Source of the DNA: Clostridiales bacterium
Lineage (GTDB): Bacteria > Bacillota > DSM-16504 > Desulfitibacterales > JAICDB01
Assembly (NCBI GenBank): GCA_020063565.1
Contig: JAICDB010000009.1
Location: forward strand, 65,393 to 129,392
DNA length: 64,000 nucleotides
Direction of reading: 5' to 3'
Numbering within the stretch: the first letter of the stretch is position 1; the number at the start of each line of letters is the position of its first letter. The notes under the pieces were generated by a model. The model worked only from the letters and a program-made list of their open reading frames with translations. It made no database searches and was not told the DNA's origin. Made by a program: the position numbers and the translations under genes. Of the stretch, positions 1,813 through 63,405 are shown in pieces.

Positions 1813-1852
1813 TCTTTCGGATTTTCAACTAAGTTATACTTTCTAATAGTAC

Positions 1853-1901: not shown

Positions 1902-3425
1902 TTACAAGCCGATACTTTTTGCTTCTCTTAAAAGTTTTTTGTCTATCTTACCTGTGACAGTCTTTGGCAATGACTCACAGAATTCAACCTGTTTGGGACA
2001 TTTATAATTGGCAAGGTTTTGACGGCAATAGCGGATAAGTTCTTTTTCAGTGGCTTCTTTACCGGGCTTTAATGCTACAAACGCTTTGGGTATTTCGCCC
2101 CTCAGTTCATCAGCAATGCCCACTACGGCAGCTTCAGCTACAGCAGGATGCTGGTAAAGAATCTCTTCTACTTCCCGGGGGTAAACATTCAGTCCGCCAA
2201 CAATAATCATGTCTTTTTTACGGTCTACAATGTAAATGTAGCCGTCTTCATCTTTTTTGCCCAAATCACCGGTATGGAGCCAGCCTCCCCGCAAGGCTTG
2301 AGCTGTTTCCTCCGGGCGGTTAAGGTATCCCTTCATCACGTTCCTACCCTTAACACAAATTTCACCTACTTCATTAACAGGAACCTCATTGTCATTATCA
2401 TCGACTATTTTTACCTCTACTCCCGGAACAGGTATACCCACGGAACCCGGTTTTCGAACCCCGTCAATTGGGTTTGCATATGAAACGGGGGATGTTTCTG
2501 TGGGACCGTTTCCTTCTATCATAATTACACCGTATCTTTCTTCAAAAACCTTCATTATTTCTACAGGGAGCGGCGCTCCACCGGAAACGCACAATTTAAT
2601 GGAAGAGAGATCGTAGCTCTTTGGATCTTTAATCGCGGCCAGGAAAGCTCCATACATGGCCGGCACACCGGCAAAAATCGTAACTTTTTTTGCTTCTACT
2701 TCTTTAAGAGTGGCATCGGGTTTAAACTGGCCGACAATAGTGATACTTGCTCCCGTATAAATAGGAACTATCATACAAACCATTTCAGCAAAAGAGTGGA
2801 ATAGAGGCAGCACGCAGAGATAGTTTTCATCAGAACCTAAACCTAAATGTTTTATGGTGGCCTCAGCATCAAAGATAAGGTTATCATGGGTCAAGAGTGC
2901 TCCCTTTGGCTTTCCTGTAGTCCCTGAGGTATAGAGGCAAGATGCGACATCGTCTGGTTCTATTGTAATATTAAATGGTTCACTTGCAGAACCTTCGATC
3001 AGTTCTGCAAAATCATAGATATCCTTTTCAGTTTCTCCTCCAATAATTATTAGGCTTTCTAGAGATTGTGCTTCATTCCAGATGCTTTCCACCAGGTTCT
3101 GAAAGGGGGCTGCAGTAATAAGTATTTTAATGCTGGCATCGTTTAAGATATACTTTAACTCCTCACCTTTAAAAAGTGGGTTGATGGGGACAATGGTAGC
3201 ACCGATACTGACAATACCAAAATAGGAAATGACAAACTCCGGACAGTTTGGTAATAAAACAGCTGCCCTTTCGCCTTTTTTTAAGCCCAAATTAGCCAAT
3301 CCGTTTGCCAATCTGTTAACCTTTTCTTCCAGGTCTTTGTAAGTTATTTCAATATCTTGGAAATAGATAGCTGTTTTGTCAGAAAATTCTGCAGCTGTTT
3401 TACGAAGCAAACTTGCAACAGACAT
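1902..3425 (-). CDS. AMP-dependent acyl-CoA synthetase (long-chain fatty acid-CoA ligase type)
   Basis: 507 aa. AMP-binding signature YTSGTTGKPKGA and the C-terminal TGDLG...GKIDKK motifs. Confidence 0.85.
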   Translation of the reverse strand: MSVASLLRKTAAEFSDKTAIYFQDIEITYKDLEEKVNRLANGLANLGLKKGERAAVLLPNCPEFVISYFGIVSIGATIVPINPLFKGEELKYILNDASIKILITAAPFQNLVESIWNEAQSLESLIIIGGETEKDIYDFAELIEGSASEPFNITIEPDDVASCLYTSGTTGKPKGALLTHDNLIFDAEATIKHLGLGSDENYLCVLPLFHSFAEMVCMIVPIYTGASITIVGQFKPDATLKEVEAKKVTIFAGVPAMYGAFLAAIKDPKSYDLSSIKLCVSGGAPLPVEIMKVFEERYGVIMIEGNGPTETSPVSYANPIDGVRKPGSVGIPVPGVEVKIVDDNDNEVPVNEVGEICVKGRNVMKGYLNRPEETAQALRGGWLHTGDLGKKDEDGYIYIVDRKKDMIIVGGLNVYPREVEEILYQHPAVAEAAVVGIADELRGEIPKAFVALKPGKEATEKELIRYCRQNLANYKCPKQVEFCESLPKTVTGKIDKKLLREAKSIGL

Positions 3426-13789: not shown

Positions 13790-13810
13790 TAATTCATGTA
13801 TAAATATTAC

Positions 13811-13886
13811 AGGTGATGGAGCTCACCTTTAACCGTCTGGCTATGACTGATGGCTCCTGCTGAGTTGTTCGGCAGGAGTCTTTTTT
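13811..13886 (+). promoter_or_regulatory. Fluoride riboswitch (crcB motif) with intrinsic terminator expression platform
   Basis: AGGUGAUGGAGCUCACC UUUAACCGUC ... CUGAUGGCUCCU matches the crcB-motif consensus. Overlapping terminator GGCTCCTGC..GCAGGAGTC plus T6. Lies directly upstream of crcB. Confidence 0.9.
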
Positions 13887-23973: not shown

Positions 23974-24669
23974 ATGCATGAACATATTAAGATACTGGTG
24001 GTAGATGACGAAGAAAAAATTCGCTCCCTTGTTAAAATGTATCTTCAGAGAGAGGGCTTCAAAATAGATGAGGCAGCTGACGGGGATGAAGCATTGACAA
24101 AAATCAAAAAAACCGACTACAACCTGGTAGTTCTTGATCTGATGCTTCCGGTGATTGACGGAATGGCGGTTTGCAGGGAAGTTCGCTCTTTTTCCGATGT
24201 TCCCATTATCATGCTTACTGCCAAGGGTGATGAGGTGGACAAGCTGGTCGGTTTTGAAATGGGAGCCGATGACTATGTTGTCAAACCCTTTAGCCCAAGG
24301 GAAGTGGTTGCCAGGGTAAAAGCGCTTCTGAAGCGTACGAAAGGCAATAAGATGGAACAAAAGACCGAAAAACTGGAGTTTCCCGGGTTAATAATGGAAA
24401 TGGAATCACGAAGGGTATTTGTTGAGGGAAAGGAAATTACACTGACACCCAAGGAATATGATCTTTTTTATTACCTGGCCAGCAATAAAGGCAGGGTTTT
24501 TAGCCGTGAGAAGATACTTGAAGAAGTATGGGGCTATGATTATTTTGGTGATTTAAGAACTGTTGATACCCACATCAAAAATTTACGGGAAAAGATAGCA
24601 GCTAACTCTGATAGAAAATATATTCATACTGTCTGGGGAGTAGGCTATAAATTTGAGGTGGTAGATTGA
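23974..24669 (+). CDS. OmpR-family response regulator
   Basis: Receiver domain (ILVVDDEE, DLMLPVIDG) plus winged helix (WGVGYKF). Confidence 0.85.
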   Translation: MHEHIKILVVDDEEKIRSLVKMYLQREGFKIDEAADGDEALTKIKKTDYNLVVLDLMLPVIDGMAVCREVRSFSDVPIIMLTAKGDEVDKLVGFEMGADDYVVKPFSPREVVARVKALLKRTKGNKMEQKTEKLEFPGLIMEMESRRVFVEGKEITLTPKEYDLFYYLASNKGRVFSREKILEEVWGYDYFGDLRTVDTHIKNLREKIAANSDRKYIHTVWGVGYKFEVVD

Positions 24670-27947: not shown

Positions 27948-28637
27948 TTACACCTCTTCTTTTAGAGTATATCCTACTCCTCGAACTGTATGGATTAAGC
28001 GTGAATTATCCCCTTCTTCAAGTTTTTGACGCAGCATACGGATATAGACTTCCAGAACATTTGATTCACCGCTATAATCGAATCCCCAGATTTTCTCCAT
28101 AATAAGTTCTTTAGAAAGTACCTGACGGGGATTTTCTAAAAAGAGCTTTAAAAGTTCAAATTCCTTTGTAGTTAGAGTTAACCTTCTTTTTCCTCGAAAT
28201 ACTTCCCTGGTAGCAGTATTAAGGGTTAAATCTGCGAATTTAAGTGTATTCTTATCACCTTTCTCTTCTCTCTGGCGGCGTCTCAAGAGTGCCCGTACCC
28301 TGGCCAACAGCTCTTCCAGTGCAAAGGGCTTTACCAAATAATCGTCAGCTCCTGCATCGAGTCCCTGGACACGGTCTGTAACTTCATCCTTGGCAGTAAG
28401 CATTAGGAAGGGGGTAGTAACATTTTGTTTTCTGAGGCGTTTGCAAACCTCAATACCGTCTATACCGGGCATCAAAATATCCAGAATAACAAGATCCGGT
28501 TTAACTTCCAAAGTTTTATTAAAACCCTCGATTCCATCATGTGCAACGTATACTTCATAGCCCTCGTAGGTCAAAATACGATATAAAAAGGTAGTTATTT
28601 TTTCATCGTCATCTACCACAAGTATAGTAGCAGGCAT
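27948..28637 (-). CDS. OmpR-family response regulator (CssR-like)
   Basis: ILVVDDDE, DILMPGIDG, RGVGYTL. Divergent from htrA. Confidence 0.85.
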   Translation of the reverse strand: MPATILVVDDDEKITTFLYRILTYEGYEVYVAHDGIEGFNKTLEVKPDLVILDILMPGIDGIEVCKRLRKQNVTTPFLMLTAKDEVTDRVQGLDAGADDYLVKPFALEELLARVRALLRRRQREEKGDKNTLKFADLTLNTATREVFRGKRRLTLTTKEFELLKLFLENPRQVLSKELIMEKIWGFDYSGESNVLEVYIRMLRQKLEEGDNSRLIHTVRGVGYTLKEEV

Positions 28638-28760
28638 AATTACACACTCCCTTTGAGAGGATGTTCGAACACTTACTTCAAAATTTTAACGCTTTTTTAT
28701 TCTATTTTAAGGTAATTTTAAGGTTTATGCATTATTCTTTTATACAGGAGGTGGAATAAT

Positions 28761-30118: not shown

Positions 30119-30204
30119 TAAAATATTAACTCTTAATAGAGAAAGTTATATTCATATGTTATAATACAACTTGTATCAAAGTAGTTTCGTTTTATATAGA
30201 TGAG

Positions 30205-30231
30205 TGTTCGAAAAGCAGCGCTTTTCGAACA
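30205..30231 (+). repeat. Hairpin-only (core-less) copy E1 of the TGTTCGAAAAG/CTTTTCGAACA repeat family
   Basis: TGTTCGAAAAGC-AGC-GCTTTTCGAACA, a 12-bp perfect stem. The flanks (GAG- / -TCCTTTTGAAGA) match the flanks of the long copies. Confidence 0.8.
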
Positions 30232-30266
30232 TCCTTTTGAAGAATATTAGCAAGGGAGAGGGGATA

Positions 30267-38165: not shown

Positions 38166-38178
38166 TATTTCAAGAGGT

Positions 38179-38303
38179 TGTTCGAAAAGTCCGCGCGAAA
38201 TCCACTTCGAATTTCGGCGTTGGCTTGTCTCCTGCGCTGCTCACCCGGCACTTAACCAGACAATTTGCCTTCTTCTCGTGTCTTTCGTGCTCCTTTTCGA
38301 ACA
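38179..38303 (-). repeat. Long copy A of the repeat family (reverse orientation, variant central module)
   Basis: Plus strand TGTTCGAAAAGTCCGCGCGAAATCCACTTCGAATTTCGGCGTTGGCTTGTCTCCTGCGCTGCTCAC...CGTGCTCCTTTTCGAACA. Abuts the znuB stop codon. Confidence 0.85.
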
Positions 38304-38316
38304 CGCACTTCAAAAA

Positions 38317-53493: not shown

Positions 53494-53534
53494 ATTACCA
53501 CCTGGCTAAGAAAAAATTAAAGGAGCGTGATATC

Positions 53535-54137
53535 ATGTGCAGACAATTAACCCCCTGGGAAGAGGCTGTACAATTTCACGGGCATGCCTGTCCCGGGCTG
53601 GCAATGGGCGTCAGGGCCAGTCAAATCGCTTTGGAAAAACTGGGTGTAGAGAGGGCTGAAGATGAAGAACTGATAGCAATTGCTGAAACTGACGGCTGCG
53701 GTGTAGACGGTGTACAGGTCATAACTGCCTGTACACTGGGTAAAGGAAACCTCTTTTTAAAGGATTACGGAAAGCAGGTCTATACAATTGCCAGCAGGAA
53801 AACAGGTCAAGGCGTAAGGGTGTATTTTAAGCCGTTTGATTTCTCCGCTGCAGAGAAGGATTTGCGCAAAAAGGTTTTTGCAGGAGAAGCCACTCCCGAA
53901 GAACAGAAGGAATTTAAGAAGATGCAGGAAAAATTGATAGATCATATTCTCAATTCCACCGCTGAAGAGATTTGTGATGTGCAGGTGAAAAAAGTGGAAC
54001 TCCCCGGGAAGGCACGCATTTTCCAGTCGGTACGCTGTGAAAAATGCGGTGAATACTTTATGGAACCAAGGGCCAGGTTCCAGGACGGTAAAATTGTCTG
54101 CCTGGAATGCTTTGAGGACTATAACAGGCAAATTTAG
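53535..54137 (+). CDS. FmdE-domain protein with C-terminal zinc ribbon
   Basis: FHGHACPGLAMG and ETDGCGVDG motifs of the FmdE family. C-terminal CEKCGE...CLEC. Confidence 0.75.
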   Translation: MCRQLTPWEEAVQFHGHACPGLAMGVRASQIALEKLGVERAEDEELIAIAETDGCGVDGVQVITACTLGKGNLFLKDYGKQVYTIASRKTGQGVRVYFKPFDFSAAEKDLRKKVFAGEATPEEQKEFKKMQEKLIDHILNSTAEEICDVQVKKVELPGKARIFQSVRCEKCGEYFMEPRARFQDGKIVCLECFEDYNRQI

Positions 54138-54274
54138 AAAAAGTGAGACCGATCTAGGCCGGATCGGTCTTGTAAATTTTTTAAGGTAATGCTAAATTTA
54201 AATGGCAAGAATGTGGTAAAATAAAATTAAATGTGGTAATATAAAAGTTATTATAATTAAAAGAGGTGTACTAT

Positions 54275-54724
54275 ATGAAGCTTGCACTTGGTAGTGATCA
54301 CGGCGGGTTTAATCTAAAGGAAAAGATTAAAGAATATTTAGATGAAAAGGGAATTACATATGAAGATATGGGTACATATAATTCAGAGTCAGCTGATTAT
54401 CCTGACTTTGCTAAAAAGGTCGCGGAAGCTGTGGCAAAGGGTGAATATGAACGGGGAATTTTAATATGTGGAACCGGAATTGGAATAGGGATTGCCGCAA
54501 ACAAGGTTCCCGGAATTAGAGCAGCCCTCTGTCATGATACCTTTAGCGCGAGATATGCCAGGGAGCACAACAACGCCAATATCCTGACAATGGGTGAAAG
54601 GGTAATCGGTCCAGGTCTTGCAATAGAAATAGTGGACACCTGGTTAAAGGCCGAGTTTAGCGGTGGTAGACATGAACGCCGTGTAAATAAGATCACCGAA
54701 ATAGAAAAAGAATACAGTATTTAA
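54275..54724 (+). CDS. rpiB: Ribose-5-phosphate isomerase B
   Basis: GSDHGG, ICGTGIGIGIAANK, RHERRV motifs. ATG 54275 has an AGAGG RBS. Confidence 0.9.
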   Translation: MKLALGSDHGGFNLKEKIKEYLDEKGITYEDMGTYNSESADYPDFAKKVAEAVAKGEYERGILICGTGIGIGIAANKVPGIRAALCHDTFSARYAREHNNANILTMGERVIGPGLAIEIVDTWLKAEFSGGRHERRVNKITEIEKEYSI

Positions 54725-54736
54725 CTTAAAAATAAG

Positions 54737-54841
54737 TGTTCGAAAAGGAGCACGATAGACACGAGAAGTTCAAGGCGGCGCAGACTTTGAGCAGCGGAGC
54801 GTACATAGAAGTACGTGAGCAGCGGAGAAGTCAAGACATCC
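54737..54841 (+). repeat. Copy B of the repeat family (right module internally deleted)
   Basis: TGTTCGAAAAGGAGCACGATAGACACGAGAAGTTCAAGGCGGCG...GCGTACATAGAAGTACGTGAGCAGCGGAGAAGTCAAGACATCC. Confidence 0.85.
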
Positions 54842-54875
54842 TATTTAAAAAATTTTATAGATAGGGGAGATAGTA

Positions 54876-56120
54876 ATGGAGCTGGAACTTATTAAAAATG
54901 TAGACCCGGAAATTGCGGAAGCTGTTCAAAAGGAATTGGACAGGCAGGAAGGTTTTCTGGAAATGATTGCTTCAGAGAACTTTGCCAGCCCGGCAGTAAT
55001 GGCTGCCATGGGAACAGTCCTCACCAACAAGTATGCGGAAGGATATCCCGGCAAAAGATATTACGGTGGCTGCCATTGTGTAGATATCGCTGAGGACCTG
55101 GCAAGGGATAGGGCTAAGGAGATTTTTGGGGCAGAGCATGCCAACGTGCAACCCCATTCGGGAGCCCAGGCCAATACGGCAGTCTATTTTGCATTTTTAA
55201 ACCCGGGAGATAAAGTCCTGGGAATGAGCCTTGCCCATGGGGGACACTTAACTCACGGAAGTCCCGTCAATATTTCCGGAAAGTATTATGAATTCTATGC
55301 TTACGGGGTTGATCCCGAAACAGAAACCATCGACTATGATGAGCTGGCTAAAAAGGCCAGAGAAGTAAAGCCAAAGATGATAGTGGCCGGCGCTAGCGCT
55401 TATCCCAGAATTATTCATTTTGATAAAATCAGGGAAATTGCAGATGAAGTAGGGGCCTTAATGATGGTGGATATGGCGCATATTGCAGGATTAGTGGCTG
55501 CAGGACTGCATCCTAACCCTGTACCTTATGCAGATTTTGTAACAAGTACCACCCACAAAACGCTGCGTGGCCCCAGAGGCGGTTTGATTCTCTGCAAGGA
55601 AAAATATGCCAAGGAAATAGATAAGGCTGTTTTCCCGGGCATCCAGGGCGGTCCCCTCATGCATATCATTGCTTCAAAGGCTGTAGCATTTAAAGAAGCG
55701 ATGAAGCCGGAATTTAAGGAATATCAAGAACAGGTAGTCAAGAATTGTAAGGCATTTGCAGAAGCAATGATTGAAGAAGGCTTCCGTCTTGTTTCGGGCG
55801 GCACCGACAATCATATGGTGCTTGTTGACTTAAGACCCAAGAATGTAACAGGTAAGGAAGCAGAGGAAATCCTGGACTCTGTTCATATTACCGTAAATAA
55901 AAACGCAATTCCCAATGATCCTGAAAAGCCTTTCGTAACAAGCGGTGTGAGGATAGGTACTCCTGCACTTACCACCAGGGGCTTAAAAGAAGAAGAAATG
56001 AAAGTTATAGCACAATGTATCAATAAGGCTCTAACTTCAAAAACTGAAAAAGAGCGAGATGAAGTTAGAGAAACAGTAGCGGAAATCTGTGCTAAATTTC
56101 CACTTTACAAAAATATTTGA
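54876..56120 (+). CDS. glyA: Serine hydroxymethyltransferase
   Basis: 414 aa. PLP site [14 protein letters not shown]. The last two codons and the stop are supplied by repeat copy C. Confidence 0.95.
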
Positions 56121-56258
56121 AAAGGAGCACGAGAGACACGAGAAGTTCAAGGCGGCGAAGGCTCCGAGCAGCGGAGCGTACATCTAAAAGTACGTGAGCA
56201 GCGCAGGAGACAAGCCAACGCCGAAATTCGAAGTGGATTTCGCGCGGACTTTTCAAAT
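56115..56258 (+). repeat. Copy C of the repeat family, flanked by a 20-bp perfect direct repeat
   Basis: Termini ATTTGAAAAG/CTTTTCAAAT. Direct repeats AAATTTCCACTTTACAAAAA at 56094..56113 and 56255..56274. Confidence 0.9.
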
Positions 56259-56351
56259 TTCCACTTTACAAAAAGTAGGTAAAAGTGTAAGGTATATCGG
56301 GGGACGCGAGGATTCTCGCTTCCCCAATTTACTGTTGGGAGGAAGATTTTA

Positions 56352-56981
56352 ATGTCTAAAGTACATACTTTTGATCACCCGCTGATTCAACACAAGCTTG
56401 GCCTCATCAGGGATAAAAATACCGGTTCAAAGGACTTCAGGGAGCTTGTTGAAGAAGTTTCCATGCTGATGGCTTATGAAGTATTCAGAGATCTCCCCCT
56501 GGAAGAGAAGGAAGTGGAGACTCCGATTTGTAAAACCACAGTTAAGTCTATCAGCGGCAAAAAGGTTGGAATCGTTCCTATCTTAAGGGCGGGTCTGGGA
56601 ATGGTCGAAGGAATGGTAAAGCTGATTCCGGCAGCTAAAGTAGGACACGTGGGACTTTACAGGGACCCCGAAACACTGAAGCCAGTGGAATACTACTGCA
56701 AGCTTCCCACTGACGTTGAGGAAAGGGACCTTATCATCGTTGATCCCATGCTGGCAACAGGGGGGTCCGCTTCAGCAGCCATAACATTTTTAAAAGAAAG
56801 GGGAGCCAAGAGCATTAAGCTTGTCTGCCTTATCTCTGCTCCCGAAGGCATTGAAAAGGTTCACTCCGAGCACCCGGATGTACCCATCTTTACAGCAGCG
56901 GTAGATGAAAAACTCAACGAACATGCTTACATAGTACCCGGCCTGGGAGACGCCGGAGACCGCCTCTTTGGAACCAAGTGA
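56352..56981 (+). CDS. upp: Uracil phosphoribosyltransferase
   Basis: 209 aa. ILRAGLGM and [13 protein letters not shown] motifs. Confidence 0.95.
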
Positions 56982-57048
56982 ATCAAGGGAAGCCAAGGGG
57001 ACGGTTCTTCTGGCTCATTGGGAAATTATGAATGAAAGGTGTATTATC

Positions 57049-57489
57049 ATGCGAAAGGATTGGGATACATACTTTATGGATATTGCCTTTGAAGTGGCCA
57101 CAAGGAGTACCTGCCCGCGGAGGTATGTGGGGGCTGTAGTTGTTAAGGACAGAAGAATTAAGGGGACAGGCTATAACGGCAGCGCCTCGAGACTGCCCCA
57201 CTGTATTGATGAAGGTTGTATGGTGGTCAATAACCACTGTATCAGGACTATCCATGCGGAAGTTAACGCGCTTTTAGAATGTACTCCTGAGGAGAGACAG
57301 GGCGCTACCATCTATGTCACGGACCGTCCCTGCGCCGAATGCTCAAAGCTTATTATTTCTACCGGCATTAAAAAAGTAGTATACGCCAGGGATTATCATA
57401 TTGATTACGACTGGTTCTCCCGGGCTCCCTGGGTAGAGGTAGTGCATTTAGCGGATTATGATAATCCTCATGCCAAAACCGGTAAATAG
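57049..57489 (+). CDS. comEB: dCMP deaminase (ComEB type)
   Basis: HAEVNAL and PCAECSKLI zinc motifs. ATG 57049 has an AAAGGTG RBS. Confidence 0.85.
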   Translation: MRKDWDTYFMDIAFEVATRSTCPRRYVGAVVVKDRRIKGTGYNGSASRLPHCIDEGCMVVNNHCIRTIHAEVNALLECTPEERQGATIYVTDRPCAECSKLIISTGIKKVVYARDYHIDYDWFSRAPWVEVVHLADYDNPHAKTGK

Positions 57490-57509
57490 TTGTATTGAAG
57501 GTGAATAAA

Positions 57510-58136
57510 ATGGAGAACTTAGCACTCCCAAAGCTTAACGCCCTTTCCCCCACTCTGGACTCTACACTCCTGAAAATGATGGAGGAGATAGGGGAGCTTT
57601 CGGAACAACTGGAACTCCTTGAAGAAGGTGAAGGCTCCATCAGTTCAGTGGCAGAAGAACTTCTTGACCTTGCCCAAACGGTTATTACACTCATGTTCGT
57701 TTTTGAAAAGGAAGGAATCAGAGTGCAGGAATGGTTGGACGACCATATTGAAAAGCTTATAGAAAAGAAATATCTCAAGCCTGAACGCAGAGACGAGATT
57801 CTACTTAAGTCTGACGGCAAATACCAGTATATTTCCTTACCGCAGTTAAATATCTCAGGGGTAACCCTGGATAAAACACTGCGCAATATCAACAAGGCAA
57901 TGGGAAGGCTTGCCCAGGCCAGGGGAAAGTTCAGGGGAATGAACGGTGAAAATTGCATGCCAAAATCATCTGAAGTTAACAAAATCATGGGACTTGCTCT
58001 TCTTCACGTTGCCCAGTGCTGCTATACGATGATGTATGTTCTCAAAAACCAGTACGGTGTAAATATCAAAGAAATTGTAGAGAGACATCTTGAAAAACTG
58101 GAAAGAAAAGGGTATTTAAGTTCCAAGGTGTCTTAA
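57510..58136 (+). CDS. Tandem MazG-like all-alpha NTP-pyrophosphohydrolase-fold protein (second half degenerate)
   Basis: N-half MMEEIGELSEQ...AEELLDLAQ. Both halves end H(I/L)EKL(I/E)(E/R)K(K/G)YL. The C-half has KAMGRLAQA in place of the EExGE motif. Confidence 0.5.
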   Translation: MENLALPKLNALSPTLDSTLLKMMEEIGELSEQLELLEEGEGSISSVAEELLDLAQTVITLMFVFEKEGIRVQEWLDDHIEKLIEKKYLKPERRDEILLKSDGKYQYISLPQLNISGVTLDKTLRNINKAMGRLAQARGKFRGMNGENCMPKSSEVNKIMGLALLHVAQCCYTMMYVLKNQYGVNIKEIVERHLEKLERKGYLSSKVS

Positions 58137-58170
58137 AGGTCATTGATGGCAGGCCTTTTTATTTCTTGTT

Positions 58171-58212
58171 AAATATATCTACAATATGGTATACTATATT
58201 GTAGATATATTT
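58171..58212. promoter_or_regulatory. 17-bp-arm perfect palindrome overlapping the mazEF promoter (likely autoregulation operator)
   Basis: AAATATATCTACAATAT-GGTATACT-ATATTGTAGATATATTT, 25 nt upstream of the mazE start. The spacer contains the -10-like TATACT. Confidence 0.6.
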
Positions 58213-58236
58213 GTATCATAAATAAGGAGGCGTTTT

Positions 58237-58485
58237 ATGGGAAGTTCAACAGTTAGAATAAGTGATGATACCTTAAAAATTCTAAGGGAGATTGCAAATC
58301 AAGCAGGAAAACCTATGCAGGAAATACTTGATAAAGCAATCGAAGAGTATCGGAGAAAGCAATTTCTGATAGAAGCTAATAAAGCTTATGCTAATTTAAA
58401 AAATAATCCTCAAAAATGGCAAGAAGAGCTAAAAGAAAGAAAAGAATGGGATTCTACTCTTGCCGATGGATTGGAGGATAAGTAA
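58237..58485 (+). CDS. mazE: Ribbon-helix-helix antitoxin (MazE/EndoAI type)
   Basis: 82 aa. N-terminal RHH (STVRISDDTLKILREIA). The stop abuts the mazF ATG. Confidence 0.75.
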   Translation: MGSSTVRISDDTLKILREIANQAGKPMQEILDKAIEEYRRKQFLIEANKAYANLKNNPQKWQEELKERKEWDSTLADGLEDK

Positions 58486-58824
58486 ATGAAACCTTCAAGG
58501 GGCGAGGTGTGGCTTGTAGAACTTAATCCTGTGCGTGGACATGAACAGGCAGGAACAAGGCCGTGCCTAGTTGTTTCAGTTGATTTATTCAATCATGGGC
58601 CGGCGGATCTTGCTGTTGTTTTACCAATTACTACTAAGAATAAAGGGATTCCTTTCCATGCTGAAATAATGCCACCGGAAGGTGGCTTGAAAGAGAGATG
58701 CTTCATAAAATGTGAGGATGTCAGGTCTGTATCAACAGATAGATTTATAGAACGGTGGGGTGCGGTATCTTTAGATACATTAGCATTAGTTGAAGATAGA
58801 CTGAGGATTTTGATGGGATTATAA
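58486..58824 (+). CDS. mazF: MazF/PemK-family mRNA interferase toxin
   Basis: RGEVWLVELNPVRGHEQAGTRPCLVVS is the hallmark PemK N-terminus. 112 aa. Confidence 0.9.
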   Translation: MKPSRGEVWLVELNPVRGHEQAGTRPCLVVSVDLFNHGPADLAVVLPITTKNKGIPFHAEIMPPEGGLKERCFIKCEDVRSVSTDRFIERWGAVSLDTLALVEDRLRILMGL

Positions 58825-58999
58825 TTTTACATAATGTTTTCTATTTATTATCCAATTATATTTCTGCTTAAAATTTTAAAGGTATTTTCATTTTTTTGTC
58901 GAATAGTAAACTCTTGTATGAAAAATAACATTCCACAGGAATTCTGTTACTGATTTGTATACTATCTTCCAATTTGCAGCAAACTTATTTTGTAGAGAA

Positions 59000-59025
59000 T
59001 GCTCGAAAGGAGCGCTTTTCGAACA
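59000..59025 (+). repeat. Hairpin-only copy E2 of the repeat family (imperfect)
   Basis: TGCTCGAAAGG-AGCG-CTTTTCGAACA, followed by TCCTCTTGAAGA as in E1 and copy A. Confidence 0.7.
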
Positions 59026-59056
59026 TCCTCTTGAAGACATACAGAGGAGGAATTTT

Positions 59057-60202
59057 GTGATTAAAGTTCTTACAGTATTCGGTACCAGGCCGGAAGCAAT
59101 CAAAATGGCTCCGCTTGTCAAAAAACTGGAAGAACATCCCGAGATTGAAAGTCGCGTGCTGGTTACGGCCCAGCACCGGGAAATGCTCGATATGGTTCTG
59201 GAGCTTTTCCAAATCAAGCCCCATTATGATTTAAATATCATGAAGGAACGCCAGACCCTTACCGGCGTAACCACAAGGGTCCTGGAAGGAATTGAAAAGG
59301 TTTTTGCAAACGAAAAACCTGATCTGGTTTTGGTGCACGGGGATACCACAACCACCTTTACGGCGTCCCTTGTTTCCTTTTATCATAAAATTTCTGTTGG
59401 GCATGTAGAGGCAGGCCTGAGGACTTCCAATAAGTACTCGCCCTTCCCGGAGGAGATCAACCGCAGGCTTACCGGCTCGCTGGCCGACCTGCATTTTGCA
59501 CCGACTGCCATTGCAAAAAACAATCTTCTCAGGGAAAACACTCCCGAAAAGGGAATTTTCATTACAGGCAACACTGTCATAGATGCGCTTTTAAGCGCTG
59601 TAAATAAAAACTTTGCTTTTGAGGGAAGACTAAAGAGTATAGATTTTGTCGGTAAAAAGGTAGTGTTGGTAACTGCTCACCGCAGGGAAAACTTGGGTCG
59701 TCCCATGGAAAACATCTTTACCGCACTTAAGGAAATTGTTGAAGGGAATGAGCAGGTGGAGGTAGTTTTTCCGGTTCATAAAAACCCCCGGGTTAGGGAA
59801 CACGCCTATAGTGTGCTGGCTGGGCTGGAGAGGGTCCATTTAATAGAGCCGCTTGATTACGAACCATTTATTAACCTCATGGACCGCTCTTACATGGTGC
59901 TCACAGATTCAGGGGGAATGCAGGAAGAGGCTCCGGCCCTTGGTAAGCCCGTACTGGTCCTGAGGGACACCACAGAACGCCCGGAAGCAGTGGAGGCAGG
60001 CACTGTAAAGCTTGTCGGAACAGATAAAAAACAAATAATAGCTGCTGCCATGGAGCTTCTCACAGATAAGCGGGAATATGACAAAATGGCAAATGCAGTC
60101 AATCCTTACGGGGATGGCAGGGCTTCAGAAAGAATAGTACAAGCCTTACTGTACTACTTTGGCAGGAAATCCCATCCCCCCCGGGAATGGAGCCTTAATT
60201 GA
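59057..60202 (+). CDS. wecB: UDP-N-acetylglucosamine 2-epimerase (non-hydrolysing)
   Basis: VFGTRPEAIKMAP, VHGDTTT, TDSGGMQEEAP motifs. GTG 59057 has an AGAGGAGG RBS; the upstream part of the track ORF crosses repeat E2. Confidence 0.88.
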   Translation: MIKVLTVFGTRPEAIKMAPLVKKLEEHPEIESRVLVTAQHREMLDMVLELFQIKPHYDLNIMKERQTLTGVTTRVLEGIEKVFANEKPDLVLVHGDTTTTFTASLVSFYHKISVGHVEAGLRTSNKYSPFPEEINRRLTGSLADLHFAPTAIAKNNLLRENTPEKGIFITGNTVIDALLSAVNKNFAFEGRLKSIDFVGKKVVLVTAHRRENLGRPMENIFTALKEIVEGNEQVEVVFPVHKNPRVREHAYSVLAGLERVHLIEPLDYEPFINLMDRSYMVLTDSGGMQEEAPALGKPVLVLRDTTERPEAVEAGTVKLVGTDKKQIIAAAMELLTDKREYDKMANAVNPYGDGRASERIVQALLYYFGRKSHPPREWSLN

Positions 60203-60368
60203 ATAATAACTGGTAATACTATTGTTTTTTAGGTTGTTTTTAATGAACTTGGCTAGAAGACATAGGTGTTGAAAGGACTTTCACAAAGTTATAACGAACA
60301 AGTAGTAAATATAAAAATTTAATATATAAAATAAGTTTTTCTTATATACCGACTAAGGGTGTTGAAAT

Positions 60369-60641
60369 GTGAAAAAGGACTATTTCAATTATGCCCGTTA
60401 TGCCAATTTTGCACTGTCCTTTGGCGTCACTTCAATAGCTGCCATGCTTCTTTGCTTTTTTGGAGGGCAGTGGCTGGATAAAAAATTGGGAACTTCACCT
60501 GCATTTCTATTAATAGGAATTTTTCTGGGAATAGCGGTAACCTTTAAGAGTCTCATGACAGAACTCAAGATTTTAAATAAATCAGAAGAGCTTTATGAGG
60601 AAGAGGAAAAGGAGAAGAACGGGGGAAAAAGCAAGCAGTGA
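60369..60641 (+). CDS. AtpZ/ATPase_gene1-like small membrane protein
   Basis: 90 aa, 2 TM (GGQWLDKKLGT motif). First gene of the atp operon. Confidence 0.65.
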   Translation: MKKDYFNYARYANFALSFGVTSIAAMLLCFFGGQWLDKKLGTSPAFLLIGIFLGIAVTFKSLMTELKILNKSEELYEEEEKEKNGGKSKQ

Positions 60642-61003
60642 AGTTTACCGATTTCAAAAACAGGGTTGTCCAGATTGTAGTTTTTGGTCTTATAACTGCG
60701 GCGCTGGGCTATTTGTTTGTGGATCACAGGTTTGGAATTGGAGTCATTGCCGGACTGCCTTTTAGCATATTTAATTTTTGGCTTGTGGCCAGCGCTGTGG
60801 AAGGACTTGAGGGAGAAAGTCCCCGCCGGTCCCAGAACAGGTTCATGCTGAGGTCTTTCCTGAGAATGTTTATTTCCATGGCTGTTCTGTTTATCTCAAT
60901 AAAGTGGGGCATTTACTTCATGTTAGGGGTTGCCATGGGACTTATCCTGCAAATGCTTACTTACTTTAAGGATGCTGTAAAATTGCTTTCCGGAAAGGGG
61001 TGA
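60638..61003 (+). CDS. atpI: ATP synthase protein I
   Basis: 121 aa, 4 TM. Located directly upstream of atpB. Confidence 0.7.
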   Translation: MKFTDFKNRVVQIVVFGLITAALGYLFVDHRFGIGVIAGLPFSIFNFWLVASAVEGLEGESPRRSQNRFMLRSFLRMFISMAVLFISIKWGIYFMLGVAMGLILQMLTYFKDAVKLLSGKG

Positions 61004-61007
61004 AATC

Positions 61008-61712
61008 GTGGAACATATAATGGAAAAGATAGTCCATAAACTGGCCCATGTAATGGAACATATCCAGCCGTATGTAGCTTATAAAGTAGGTCCCGTGGAA
61101 ATTACAGATACAGTTGTAACAACCTGGATTGTAATGATTGTTTTATTTGCAGTAATATTTTTCTTTACAAGGGGCTTGAGCGAAAAACCTACAACTAAAA
61201 GACAACACATCATTGAAATGATCGTAGGATTTATTGTGGATTTAATAGACTCTATTCTAGGCAAGCAAGGCAGAAAATATCTACCTCTAATCGGCACACT
61301 ATTCATATTTATTCTCTTTTTGAACCTGTCATGGTTTATACCGACATTGAAACCACCTACCATGGACTTAAGTACTACAGCGGCCTTTGCAGTAACAACT
61401 ATAATCATAGTTCAGCTGATAGGTATCAAGAAAAAGGGAATAGTCGGGTATGTGAAGCACTTTTTTGAACCAGTACCGTTTCTTTTTCCGCTAAATGTCC
61501 TGGAGGAGCTGGTAAAACCCTTCTCCCTTGCACTCCGTCTTTTCGGAAACATGTTTGGGGAAGAAATGGTAGTGACAATTCTTTTCATTATCTTGCCGCT
61601 GTTTTTGCCGGTACCAATCCAGGTACTGGGAGTGTTAATGGGTACAATCCAGGCTATGGTGTTTACAATGCTACCAGTTATATATATAGCTAGCTTCATA
61701 CACGGCCATTAA
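61008..61712 (+). CDS. atpB: F0F1 ATP synthase subunit a
   Basis: Conserved LALRLFGNMFGEE (essential Arg) motif. Confidence 0.92.
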   Translation: MEHIMEKIVHKLAHVMEHIQPYVAYKVGPVEITDTVVTTWIVMIVLFAVIFFFTRGLSEKPTTKRQHIIEMIVGFIVDLIDSILGKQGRKYLPLIGTLFIFILFLNLSWFIPTLKPPTMDLSTTAAFAVTTIIIVQLIGIKKKGIVGYVKHFFEPVPFLFPLNVLEELVKPFSLALRLFGNMFGEEMVVTILFIILPLFLPVPIQVLGVLMGTIQAMVFTMLPVIYIASFIHGH

Positions 61713-61739
61713 TTCCGGTAAACACCTCTTAATTTGTAA

Positions 61740-62000
<261 letters not shown>

Positions 62001-62032
62001 GATGGAACAACATCTTAAAATGAAAAGGTACA

Positions 62033-62057
62033 TACCGGGGGATATTTTCCCCCGGTA
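62033..62057 (+). other. Strong stem-loop immediately after atpE without a U-tract (mRNA stabiliser or processing hairpin candidate)
   Basis: TACCGGGGG-ATATTTT-CCCCCGGTA, 9-bp stem. Confidence 0.5.
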
Positions 62058-62158
62058 AAACTACAAGTGCCGTGTAAGACGCAAAGTATGGATTGTAAAA
62101 TGAATTCCGGGCGGGGTGAAGCTTCGAGTATATTTCCCTGCCTTTTTCAAAAAATGAG

Positions 62159-62305
62159 TGTTCGAAAAGGAGCACGAGAGACACGAGAAGTTCAAGGCGG
62201 CGAAGGCTTCGAGCAGCGGAGCGTAGTATAGAAACCTACGTGAGCAGCGCAGGAGACGAGCCAACGTAGAAATTCGAAGTGGATTTCGCGCGGACTTTTT
62301 GAACA
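62159..62305 (+). repeat. Long copy D of the repeat family, inside the atp operon (atpE-atpF spacer)
   Basis: TGTTCGAAAAGGAGCACGAGAGACACGAGAAG...GCGTAGTATAGAAACCTACGT...GAAATTCGAAGTGGATTTCGCGCGGACTTTTTGAACA. A partial extra fragment GGCGGGGTGAAGCTTCGAG lies near 62111..62129. Confidence 0.9.
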
Positions 62306-62350
62306 TCCTATAAAATAAAAACCCTGGTGTACAAGGGGGGGGACAGCTAT

Positions 62351-62857
62351 ATGGCTTCTGTACTGGAGGCCCTTCACTTCAACTTTTCAACCTTTATACT
62401 GCAAGCAATCAACCTTCTGATAGTGATGGGAGTTCTCTATATTCTTTTATACAAACCATTGATGAGGGTTATAGAAGAAAGGGACAACAAAATAGAAAAC
62501 AACCTGCAGGAAGCACAGTCTGCCAAGGAAGAGGCAAATGAACTCCTTGCTCAATATAAGGAGCAGTTGGGGCAGGCAAGGGAAGAAGCACGGGGTATTA
62601 TTGAAAATGCCAAGAAAATTGGCGACGATACCCGTGAGAGAATTATAGCGGAAGCCCGTGAAGAGGCCAACAAAACACTTGAAAAGGCTAAAAGAGAAAT
62701 TGAAACAGAAAAGGCAAAGGCCCTGGGAGAAATCCGCTCAGAAGCAGCTACTCTTGCAGTACTAGTTGCAGGTAAGGTTATCAAGAAGGAATTGGACACT
62801 GAGGAGCACAAAAGACTGGCTCAGGAATTTGTTGATGAGGTAGGCGAAGTACAATGA
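62351..62857 (+). CDS. atpF: F0F1 ATP synthase subunit b
   Basis: N-terminal TM then a long charged helix. ATG 62351 has a G-rich RBS. Confidence 0.9.
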   Translation: MASVLEALHFNFSTFILQAINLLIVMGVLYILLYKPLMRVIEERDNKIENNLQEAQSAKEEANELLAQYKEQLGQAREEARGIIENAKKIGDDTRERIIAEAREEANKTLEKAKREIETEKAKALGEIRSEAATLAVLVAGKVIKKELDTEEHKRLAQEFVDEVGEVQ

Positions 62858-63405
62858 GTGACAAATCCGTAGCTCGCCGTTATGCACAGGCTCTGTTCGA
62901 ACTGGGTCAGGAAAAGGATCTGCTGGAAGAAATCCAAAAGGATTTAAAGCTGGTCATAAACGTTATAGCTGAAAATGAAGAGCTGAAAAAGGTTGTAGAA
63001 CATCAACTGATTATGGCAGAAGACAAACAGGAAATATTTAAGGAAATCTTTGCAGATAAAGTCAATCCAATCACTCTCAATTTCCTGCTTCTTGTCATTC
63101 AGAAAAGAAGAGAGTTTTATCTCCAAAGTATGTATGAACAATTTCTGGAATATCTCGATGAATTCCGGGGAATTGAAGAAGCCCGGGTTAAATCTGCCGT
63201 TCAGTTAAGTGATGATATCAGGAAAAGCCTGGAAAAACAGCTCGAAAAGGTTACAGGTAAGAAAATTCGCCTGAAAACGGAGGTAGATCCGGAAATACTT
63301 GGCGGGCTCACTGTAAGAATAGGCGATAAGGTAATAGATGGAAGCATTAAAACCAGGTTAAATTTGCTCCAAAAACATTTACGGCAGACAGAACTTGCAA
63401 AGTGA
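62854..63405 (+). CDS. atpH: F0F1 ATP synthase subunit delta
   Basis: 183 aa. VARRYAQALFEL N-terminus and C-terminal GGL(T)VRIGDKVIDGS motif. Confidence 0.9.
   Translation: MSDKSVARRYAQALFELGQEKDLLEEIQKDLKLVINVIAENEELKKVVEHQLIMAEDKQEIFKEIFADKVNPITLNFLLLVIQKRREFYLQSMYEQFLEYLDEFRGIEEARVKSAVQLSDDIRKSLEKQLEKVTGKKIRLKTEVDPEILGGLTVRIGDKVIDGSIKTRLNLLQKHLRQTELAK

Follow-up and report, generated by a model that had tools for sequence, protein, structure and literature searches.

Several families of small palindromic intergenic repeats that are co-transcribed with genes, namely ERIC, bcr1 and Correia, have been described in bacteria, and compensatory base changes as well as effects on mRNA decay or cleavage by RNases have been reported for them (PMC10969869, PMC3184786, PMC3446304). 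ERIC (also IRU) is a 127-bp imperfect palindrome of transcribed intergenic regions, which is conserved across genera, occurs in size variants due to internal insertions and deletions (indels), has no known transposase and has been reported to affect mRNA decay at the RNA level (PMC10969869, PMC3184786). The bcr1 repeat of the Bacillus cereus group (~155 bp) is located in untranslated regions (UTRs) and operon spacers, is transcribed, is flanked by short direct repeats, is patchily distributed between close strains and exhibits compensatory changes by which an RNA structure is maintained (PMC3184786, PMC3446304). Also, the Correia or NEMIS elements of Neisseria (~104-157 bp) are transposable elements of the miniature inverted-repeat type (MITEs) co-transcribed with genes, and their terminal RNA hairpin is cut by RNase III (PMC10969869). 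Here, we describe a repeat family in a stretch of 64,000 nt from the metagenome-assembled genome (MAG) of a Clostridiales bacterium (contig JAICDB010000009.1, positions 65,393 to 129,392; hereafter called the window). This family is the same in kind as ERIC/IRU, bcr1 and Correia and hence not a new kind of system, but it is a member of none of them, given that its sequence, hosts and flanking repeats differ.

Like ERIC, the repeat in the window is an imperfect palindrome of similar size, which is intergenic, conserved across genera and variable by internal indels and which has no known transposase. Its hosts are, however, anaerobic Clostridia and not Gammaproteobacteria, its flanks are 10-11 nt long and TTAAAG-like instead of a TA dinucleotide, and it is characterized by a purine-rich top strand, a marked G·U asymmetry and optional structured modules at the apex and in the right arm; the dissimilarity in sequence to ERIC was judged by eye against the 127-bp consensus. 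With bcr1 (and bcr2 and bcr3), it shares the nature of a Firmicute MITE-like repeat in UTRs and operon spacers, the direct-repeat flanks, the variability between strains and the compensatory changes. While bcr1 occurs in one species group, with 5-bp TTTAT repeats and a two-stem cruciform-like fold, our repeats are found in two or more clostridial families (the hosts being Desulfallaceae, Peptococcaceae and MAGs of Clostridia), with longer flanks and a single long foldback. Correia is likewise a MITE with terminal inverted repeats and internal deletion variants; nonetheless, its TA duplication, 26-bp repeats, IHF sites and outward promoters were not seen in our repeats. REP/BIME and the pneumococcal BOX, RUP and SPRITE are intergenic, hairpin-forming and multi-copy as well, and the modular organization recalls that of BOX. 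REPs are, however, 20-40 nt in length, GC-rich and linked to RAYT transposases, the BOX modules have no single long foldback, and no sequence or Rfam relationship to REP, BOX, RUP or SPRITE was found.

The explanation that we consider probable is that the family represents a non-autonomous MITE-like element (~145-170 bp, without an open reading frame (ORF)), which is mobilised in trans and carried in mRNAs as a predicted hairpin. It has the size (<~500 bp), copy number and lack of coding capacity of a MITE, terminal inverted repeats, and insertion polymorphism together with flank duplication. In an earlier note made from the letters of the window, the repeats were recognized as one structured family, which stands; the hallmarks of a mobile MITE, namely the duplications, a filled and an empty site, tandem insertions and the spread among hosts, had been missed. 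The members found in the window are as follows.

28659..28672, minus strand: collapsed remnant GTGTTCGAACATCC with the family flanks TTGAAGTAA … TCTCAAAGGGAG.
30204..30234, plus strand: short hairpin, termini only (GTGTTCGAAAAGCAGCGCTTTTCGAACATCC), in the 5' leader of an operon with NuoE-like, NuoF-like and formate-dehydrogenase-like genes.
38166..38316, minus strand: copy A, 3' of a znuB-like gene, with both termini, the right module and a remnant of an alternative apical module (…AAGGCAAATTGTCTGGTTAAGTGCCGGG); nhmmer E=6e-30.
54736..54842, plus strand: copy B, between rpiB and glyA, with the left module and the centre intact; nhmmer E=8e-33.
56114..56263, plus strand: copy C, full-length, at the 3' end of glyA, with the altered termini (A)TATTTGAAAAG and CTTTTCAAAT; nhmmer E=3.9e-50.
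59000..59028, plus strand: short hairpin, termini only (TGCTCGAAAGGAGCGCTTTTCGAACATCC), ~30 nt upstream of the start codon of a wecB-like (Epimerase_2) gene.
62158..62309, plus strand: copy D, full-length, between atpE and atpF, with the termini GTGTTCGAAAAG and CTTTTTGAACATCCT, the left module at 62170-62190, the apical stem at 62221-62226 with 62236-62241 and the right module at 62269-62295; nhmmer E=1.4e-51.

All of the four long and two short copies that had been listed at first were confirmed at their places, far above chance, and the count of six has become seven with the remnant at 28659-28672 (minus strand), which had been overlooked and was picked up by a looser search. When dinucleotide-preserving shuffles of the window were used as a control, the expectation was 0 for both the left module GAGCACGANAGACACGAGAAG, which occurs four times (at 38272-38292 on the minus strand and at 54748, 56125 and 62170 on the plus strand), and the right module GAAATTCGAAGTGGATTTCGCGCGGAC, which occurs three times; the terminal 11-mer TGTTCGAAAAG was matched 8 times at ≤1 mismatch against 1.4 expected. 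The 11-nt terminal inverted repeat that was said to close the element is present, and conserved sequence continues outward from it, reaching G(A)GTG at the left end and CATCCT at the right end. Beyond the termini, both of the short hairpins furthermore have the flank ATCC(T)yTTGAAGA in common, and the one at 59000-59028 was found with the same sequence in four other assemblies. The remnant GTGTTCGAACATCC precedes the ATG of a gene on the minus strand (27948-28637) by 22 nt and, judging from its letters, is what is left after the loss of everything between both TTCGAA half-sites.

The terminal inverted repeats, GTGTTCGAAAAG / CTTTTCGAAC(A), form a stem of 10-12 bp, with this helix 1 paired in 99.4% of the cells of the alignment described below, and extend weakly to ~22 nt; the end can also be written as (G)AGTGTTCGAAAAG. 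On each side of the element, 10-11 nt resemble CTTAAAGTGA, are TTAAAG-like and constitute imperfect direct repeats, for example, TTAGCAA/TTAGCAA in L011 (loci fetched in our searches are numbered with the prefix L), TTAGAGT/TTAGAGT in L046 and ATTAAAGTGA/CTTAAAGTGA in L009. The longest exact match between the two flanks of the same copy was 5.75 nt as against 4.57 nt across copies, a value reached in none of 5000 permutations (p<0.0002), and no effect was seen in the control with flanks in inverted orientation.

Comparison of the same sites among assemblies is also consistent with insertion. At the rpiB-glyA site, only a short hairpin is found in four assemblies (L002-L005), of which the flanking DNA is 99.5-99.9% identical to the window. 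In L001, a full element occupies the site; behind it, the locus-specific CTTAAAAATAA appears for a second time, followed by the short hairpin. Copy B of the window is a deletion derivative of this L001 arrangement (the contig is 99.99% identical), in which the right module is gone up to the ACATCCT of the formerly adjacent short hairpin. In L034, which belongs to another genus, the orthologous spacer holds no element, and the stop codon lies within TTTAAAAAG, directly before the ribosome-binding site (RBS). Tandem short-plus-long arrangements were found in L027, L063, L068, L023 and L001, as would be expected if insertion regenerated its own target. The atpE, Fer4-gene and PemK sites were met only in the filled state or in contigs breaking inside the repeat.

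Loss of internal sequence is another source of variation. The window and the JGI contig Ga0310146_00084 (L071, L001) differ only by internal deletions in two repeats and are otherwise 99.99-100% identical; copy A is a 99-nt internal deletion, with AAGGC microhomology, of the copy in the near-identical contig L071. Indeed, the copies can be nested into a series in which more and more of the interior is deleted while the two ends are kept (L060, L030, L019, L050, L053, L056, L033, and L068), and the series bottoms out at hairpins of 28-35 nt, like the two in the window, and at the 14-nt remnant. What had been reported as core-less hairpin copies are real, and their place as end-products of such a series had been missed.

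The family is found well beyond the window. By scanning one genome per species for the exact left module, true copies were identified in five hosts: Desulfoscipio geothermicus, Desulforadius tongensis, Peptococcaceae bacterium BRH_c8a, Clostridiales bacterium PH28_bin88, and Bacillota bacterium MES5 (L007, L015, and L018, from high-GC genomes, were discarded as chance matches). In the NCBI taxonomy, D. geothermicus is placed in Desulfallaceae and D. tongensis in Peptococcaceae. A scan of metagenomes for the right module gave 45 loci, with L024, L029, L035, and L040 set aside as chance matches in one high-GC gene. A profile search with nhmmer over all fetched loci then yielded 92 hits or ~60 non-redundant elements, which adds ~60 further copies from Desulfoscipio, Desulforadius, Peptococcaceae, Clostridia MAGs and metagenomes to those first listed; a copy is 145-170 bp in length, or up to 282 bp with the optional modules, and 7 copies are present in the 64-kb window. 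The mean identity of copies between hosts (83-98%) equals that within hosts. Copies of D. geothermicus and MES5 are 98% identical, and the fetched loci of these two hosts differ by ~10 points in G+C; those of the window MAG and the metagenome Ga0182240 reach 99.3% identity. The glyA DNA of the window is only 67% identical to that of the L034 host, the one other host that was comparable. Near-identical contigs, with 99.5-100% identity to the window outside the repeats, were found in several metagenomes, and records of the proteins encoded in the window come solely from MAGs labelled as Clostridia or Clostridiales bacterium.

As had been supposed, the repeat corresponds to no named family. The covariance models of Rfam 15 gave nothing for the element in the whole window at the gathering threshold, and no match was obtained for copy D up to E=10 or for the element in five loci with module variants. 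There was no match either by BLASTN against plasmid and phage collections or in an exact scan of viral contigs, and no description of the repeat was found in the literature searched by sequence strings and by topic. We thus regard the repeats as an unnamed family of small non-coding, apparently mobile intergenic elements of anaerobic Clostridia.

As RNA, copy D is predicted to fold into a single long interrupted hairpin (-55.2 kcal/mol, z = -4.76), compared with -37.2 kcal/mol and z = -1.21 for its reverse complement. When 31 distinct full copies were aligned (A3), the structure given by RNAalifold contained 41 pairs in 9 helices, and 98.3% of the paired cells can pair, versus 94.6% in shuffles and 29-44% in slid controls. 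Among the 41 pairs, 13 are changed on both sides, versus 4.0±1.2 in shuffles (0 of 500 reach 13) and 2-4 in slid controls. The covariation is concentrated in the terminal stem, in the helix GGCUUUG / CAAAAGCC (with the alternatives GGUUUC/GAAACC, GACUU/AAGUC, and GGCUCC/GGAGAC), in the GAGCAGCG switch and in the apical pair, which is U-A in 15, C-G in 9 and G-C in 5 sequences. The compensatory changes noted at the outset in the termini of copy C and in the apical pair are present as described. The GAGCAGCG segments described as direct brackets of the centre are also there; they are actually two sides of one helix, in which one position covaries by a C-G to G-C switch (columns 81/114; 15 versus 14 sequences, between subfamilies). 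The left and right modules pair with each other and are nearly invariant including their internal loops. In pairs with a Watson-Crick majority, G·U is found in 35 cells versus 7 for A·C, although cells are non-independent and the counts by column are 14 versus 5. The top strand, with 62% purine, folds better in 31/31 copies by a mean difference of 10 kcal/mol. The idea of a strand-specific, conserved single-strand fold is hence borne out, with significance obtained with RNA parameters only.

With DNA parameters, neither strand of copy D beats shuffled sequence (z = -0.48 for the top and -0.10 for the reverse strand), and this bears on another explanation, in which the repeat is a hairpin of single-stranded DNA that is moved by a Y1 transposase of the IS200/IS605 or REP-RAYT type or by an integron-like integrase acting on attC-like sites. 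A fold that is specific to one strand across the whole element, a variable apex and conserved loop bases do recall attC and the REP/PATE hairpins, and the minimum-energy structure of the top strand with DNA parameters is the same overall hairpin. Insertion of the IS200/IS605 type makes no target duplication, however, and flanking duplications are present here; the termini GTTCGAA / TTCGAAC misfit the attC core GTTRRRY / RYYYAAC, with C at position 4 and the R positions violated. The copies are, furthermore, scattered among housekeeping genes and operons outside cassette arrays, and no integrase or Y1 gene and no recurrent neighbouring protein was seen beside them in the fetched loci. We accordingly consider this explanation very unlikely and assign the repeats neither to the PATE or REP-RAYT elements nor to integron attC sites; a resemblance of the apex to domain V of group II introns was rejected together with these readings, copy D having no Rfam match.

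No ORF is conserved among the copies in any frame, in agreement with the first description. One base of GAGCACGA[N]AGA varies in the manner of a wobble position; the other changes are, however, non-synonymous, and a coding function was rejected. The reverse strand of the element happens to be an open frame (…RKVRARSTSNF…), for example, at 62061-62306 on the minus strand, with similar ORFs in L017 and L055. These long reverse-strand ORFs were rejected as genes, being artefacts of an open frame, by which spurious ORFs are created or lengthened in mechanical ORF lists and, probably, in automatically annotated genomes too.

The covariation lies mostly between subfamilies. Also, copies that are antisense to their neighbouring genes keep 40.4 of the 41 pairs (forward -61 versus reverse -52.5 kcal/mol) and are as good as sense copies; because of this, the fold would belong to the propagating lineages and be inherited from source copies. 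Subfamily-level covariation and equally folded antisense copies speak against an entirely passive hairpin and, taken with the invariant loops, leave room for a sequence-specific partner or an RNA intermediate. In this minority reading, to which we give little weight, the fold of the top-strand RNA may be needed for the propagation or recognition of the element itself, either as a SINE-like (short interspersed element) retro-mobile RNA or as a mobile cis-regulatory module that is read by a dedicated protein via its invariant loops, spread horizontally among anaerobic Clostridia.

The first form of this reading, in which the top-strand RNA is an intermediate that is copied back by a reverse transcriptase of the host or of an intron, would account for an RNA-specific fold at the level of subfamilies and for the variable lengths of the duplications, which range from 11 to 20-27 nt; antisense copies that retain the top-strand fold, and the spread across hosts with no recognisable transposase, also fit with it. 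Nonetheless, no bias for 5'-truncation was found, the partial copies being mainly internal deletions that keep both ends; the terminal inverted repeats are clear and the target is sequence-specific, and neither an A-rich tail, nor an internal promoter, nor a link to a reverse transcriptase was found. To our knowledge, a SINE-like retro-mobile element has no precedent in bacteria, and we regard such an origin as highly improbable.

In terms of orientation, all seven members in the window follow the direction of transcription. The GC skew is positive across the entire window, and the plus strand is accordingly the leading one. Both copy A and the remnant at 28659 are located on the minus (lagging) strand and adjoin minus-strand genes, so that orientation in the window tracks transcription and not replication. 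In a wider sample consisting of elements between two co-directional genes, 27 copies were sense and 10 antisense when all hosts were included (binomial p=0.008). The ratio was 24 to 1 in the window MAG plus Ga0182240 (binomial p=1.5e-6) and 7 to 9, which is not significant, in the Desulfotomaculum-type hosts, and the two host groups differ in this bias (Fisher p=0.0003). The statement that the copies are always co-oriented with the local transcript is, therefore, valid for the window and nearly so for hosts of the window type, but not for the Desulfotomaculum-type hosts. Copies lie mostly between a stop codon and the RBS of the following gene, with the stop codon often located in the left flank. 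In about half of the sense copies, the start is no more than a few nt away from the stop codon of the preceding gene, and in many, the next RBS follows right behind the end.

Such a bias would also be expected if the repeat were a host-selected, cis-acting RNA module, namely an intercistronic or UTR stabiliser or a processing signal read by a specific protein or RNase, with mobility serving only for dispersal and with the invariant internal loops as the recognition surface. The nearly invariant internal loops of both modules amid covarying helices, the RNA-specific fold, the sense bias in window-type hosts that follows transcription and not replication, and the stop-creating change of the left terminus matched on the right terminus (see below) speak for such a module. 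The genes beside the window copies are, however, functionally unrelated (hydrogenase/formate-dehydrogenase-like, znuB, rpiB, glyA, upp, wecB, and atp), the Desulfotomaculum-type hosts show no bias, antisense copies fold as well as sense ones, copies are readily deleted between near-identical strains, and there is no identified partner. We consider this explanation rather unlikely.

That each copy is an independent small-RNA gene with its own promoter and terminator appears extremely unlikely. The structure is indeed stable and conserved, but no conserved promoter- or terminator-like site was found in or beside the copies, the flanks differ from copy to copy, and many copies are located inside operons, where they adjoin a stop codon and an RBS. 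On the sense strand, no promoter pattern was found within the copies and no terminator-like site within any copy in 53500-63000; the right end of the element is followed by CATCCTCTTAAAG, and the repeat was also rejected as an intrinsic terminator, which would be a GC-rich stem with a U-run on the sense strand.

Copy C, at the end of glyA, is accompanied by a direct duplication.

56094..56113, plus strand: left copy of the 20-nt direct duplication AAATTTCCACTTTACAAAAA, the native glyA end (codons KFPLYK).
56255..56274, plus strand: right copy of the 20-nt duplication, overlapping with copy C at the right end of the latter; behind it stands G TAG, presumably the stop that glyA had originally.

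The native end of glyA, AAA TTT CCA CTT TAC AAA AA, is thus present on both sides of copy C, and the FPLY motif is also native in glyA of L034, which is from another genus. Reading from the left, the glyA frame enters the left terminus of copy C and stops at a TGA (56118-56120), which was made by the change of TTCGAA to TTTGAA. This altered the C-terminus of GlyA, which is now …KFPLYKNI* as compared with the inferred …KFPLYKK*. The left flank gives TAA and TGA in two frames, and in the third frame a stop is most quickly gained by changing CGA to TGA. On the other side of copy C, the right terminus carries a change of the partner base that matches TTTGAA, and the same pair of changes, with the same use as the stop of an upstream ORF, is found independently of copy C, in an unrelated gene and host, in L012 (Peptococcaceae BRH_c8a; 1822-1841, minus strand). 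Of all our observations, these matched terminal changes hint most clearly at a terminal stem under local selection. The observation that both termini of copy C changed together is, in other words, true, but it is partly tied to the creation of the glyA stop and to the 20-nt target duplication; the coincidence of the right end of copy C with glyA sequence is only partly explained.

Several points weigh against a MITE-like element that is mobilised in trans and kept as an mRNA hairpin. A transposase was found neither inside nor recurrently beside any copy in ~0.6 Mb of fetched loci, where there was also no multi-copy protein near the copies and no separated pair of termini enclosing a gene; a cognate autonomous insertion sequence with the same termini was not found in the fetched loci or in the plasmid, phage and viral collections. 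The flanks are imperfect and share a common consensus, and part of their signal could be due to subfamily structure or to terminal direct repeats; the duplication at copy C is 20 nt rather than ~11 nt. The compensatory changes in the terminal stem may come from template-switch (quasipalindrome) mutation and not from selection, and the terminal pattern shared by copy C and L012 could equally be produced in this way. The antisense copies, being equally well folded, give no sign of selection at the level of the local mRNA. Finally, the genes used to assign orientation were called crudely as longest ORFs, and the sample of copies came from scans for exact patterns.

Besides the deletions, the element varies by optional modules. 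An apical domain closed by CCCGGCACUUA / UAAGUGCCGGG (CCCGGCACTTA…TAAGTGCCGGG) can replace the apex, with two unrelated interiors of ~75-85 nt: the one is found in L002 (11300-11410), L038, L043, and L046 and as a remnant in window copy A (38230-38265, minus strand), and the other in L032, L042, and L044. These apical variants could represent a domain swap or a second, nested repeat family. Still another apical insert is present in L008. A T-box leader (RF00230, 105 bits) was observed in L043 at 2696-2929 (plus strand), ~380 nt downstream of the element copy and before the next gene. In the right arm, a module of ~100 nt with two hairpins follows CCAACGCAG in L011 (1500-1600), L016, L017 (5030-5130, minus strand), L062, and L045. 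The first hairpin of this module has a covarying stem (AAAAAGACGCGC versus GGGAAUGCGCGC versus GGGAAGGCGCGC) and a conserved loop, (A)UUCAGUUCCCUUAG ((A)TTCAGTTCCCTTAG), and the second hairpin is TTGCCATAwATATGGCAA. The right-arm module has no match in Rfam, occurs also alone without the main element (L066:4090-4200, minus strand) and is mostly found in elements antisense to genes, with five antisense or partly antisense copies having it. Candidates for cargo or for an autonomous copy were rejected among these variants: in L008, L011, L016, and L017, the centre consists of a structured module that does not code for protein, and what looked like an insertion in L020 is half of a copy, truncated and situated upstream of rph and a P-loop gene.

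In the MITE-like explanation that we favour, a transposase supplied in trans would insert copies by a staggered cut of ~10-11 bp at TTAAAG-like sites. Because most of the insertion sites lie within operons, the element is predicted to be transcribed as part of the mRNA, in which it would fold into the hairpin. REP can protect upstream mRNA, and, as in REP, ERIC and Correia, the hairpin could be a compact intercistronic stem that acts as a ribonuclease barrier or a processing site, presumably with no role in the termination of transcription, and might thereby make the insertion tolerable or even useful. In the lineage of the window, sense-oriented copies alone would then persist.

Some other features were noticed in the window. 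The only match above the Rfam gathering threshold is a fluoride riboswitch (crcB motif, RF01734; 52.7 bits) at 13803-13866 on the plus strand. A perfect palindrome of 21+21 nt without spacer (AAATATATCTACAATATGGTA|TACTATATTGTAGATATATTT) at 58171-58212 overlaps a promoter-like site (58166-58195) just upstream of a pair of genes comprising an 82-aa ORF and a PemK toxin (58237-58824), and from this arrangement it looks like a putative operator of the PemK toxin-antitoxin operon. Also, two pairs of inverted repeats, 23992-24020 / 28597-28625 and 24202-24230 / 28384-28412 (93% and 83%), link the ~24-kb region with the minus-strand gene 27948-28637; these pairs probably represent paralogous coding sequence on opposite strands.

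Structural variation and assembly breaks are both concentrated in the repeats described here. Their length varies between contigs and assemblies with 99.5-99.99% identical flanking DNA, and many short-read contigs end inside a copy (L003-L006, L072-L078). The contrast in orientation bias, with 24:1 in the one host group and 7:9 in the other, offers a concrete lead. A well-defined, structured repeat family is added to the poorly studied uncultured Clostridia and to the sulfate reducers of the Desulfotomaculum type, as a Gram-positive counterpart to ERIC, and is of use in annotating and assembling their genomes. Since two of the hosts are cultured, questions on the movement of the family with no visible transposase, on its conservation across hosts and on whether the hairpin acts on mRNA are tractable.

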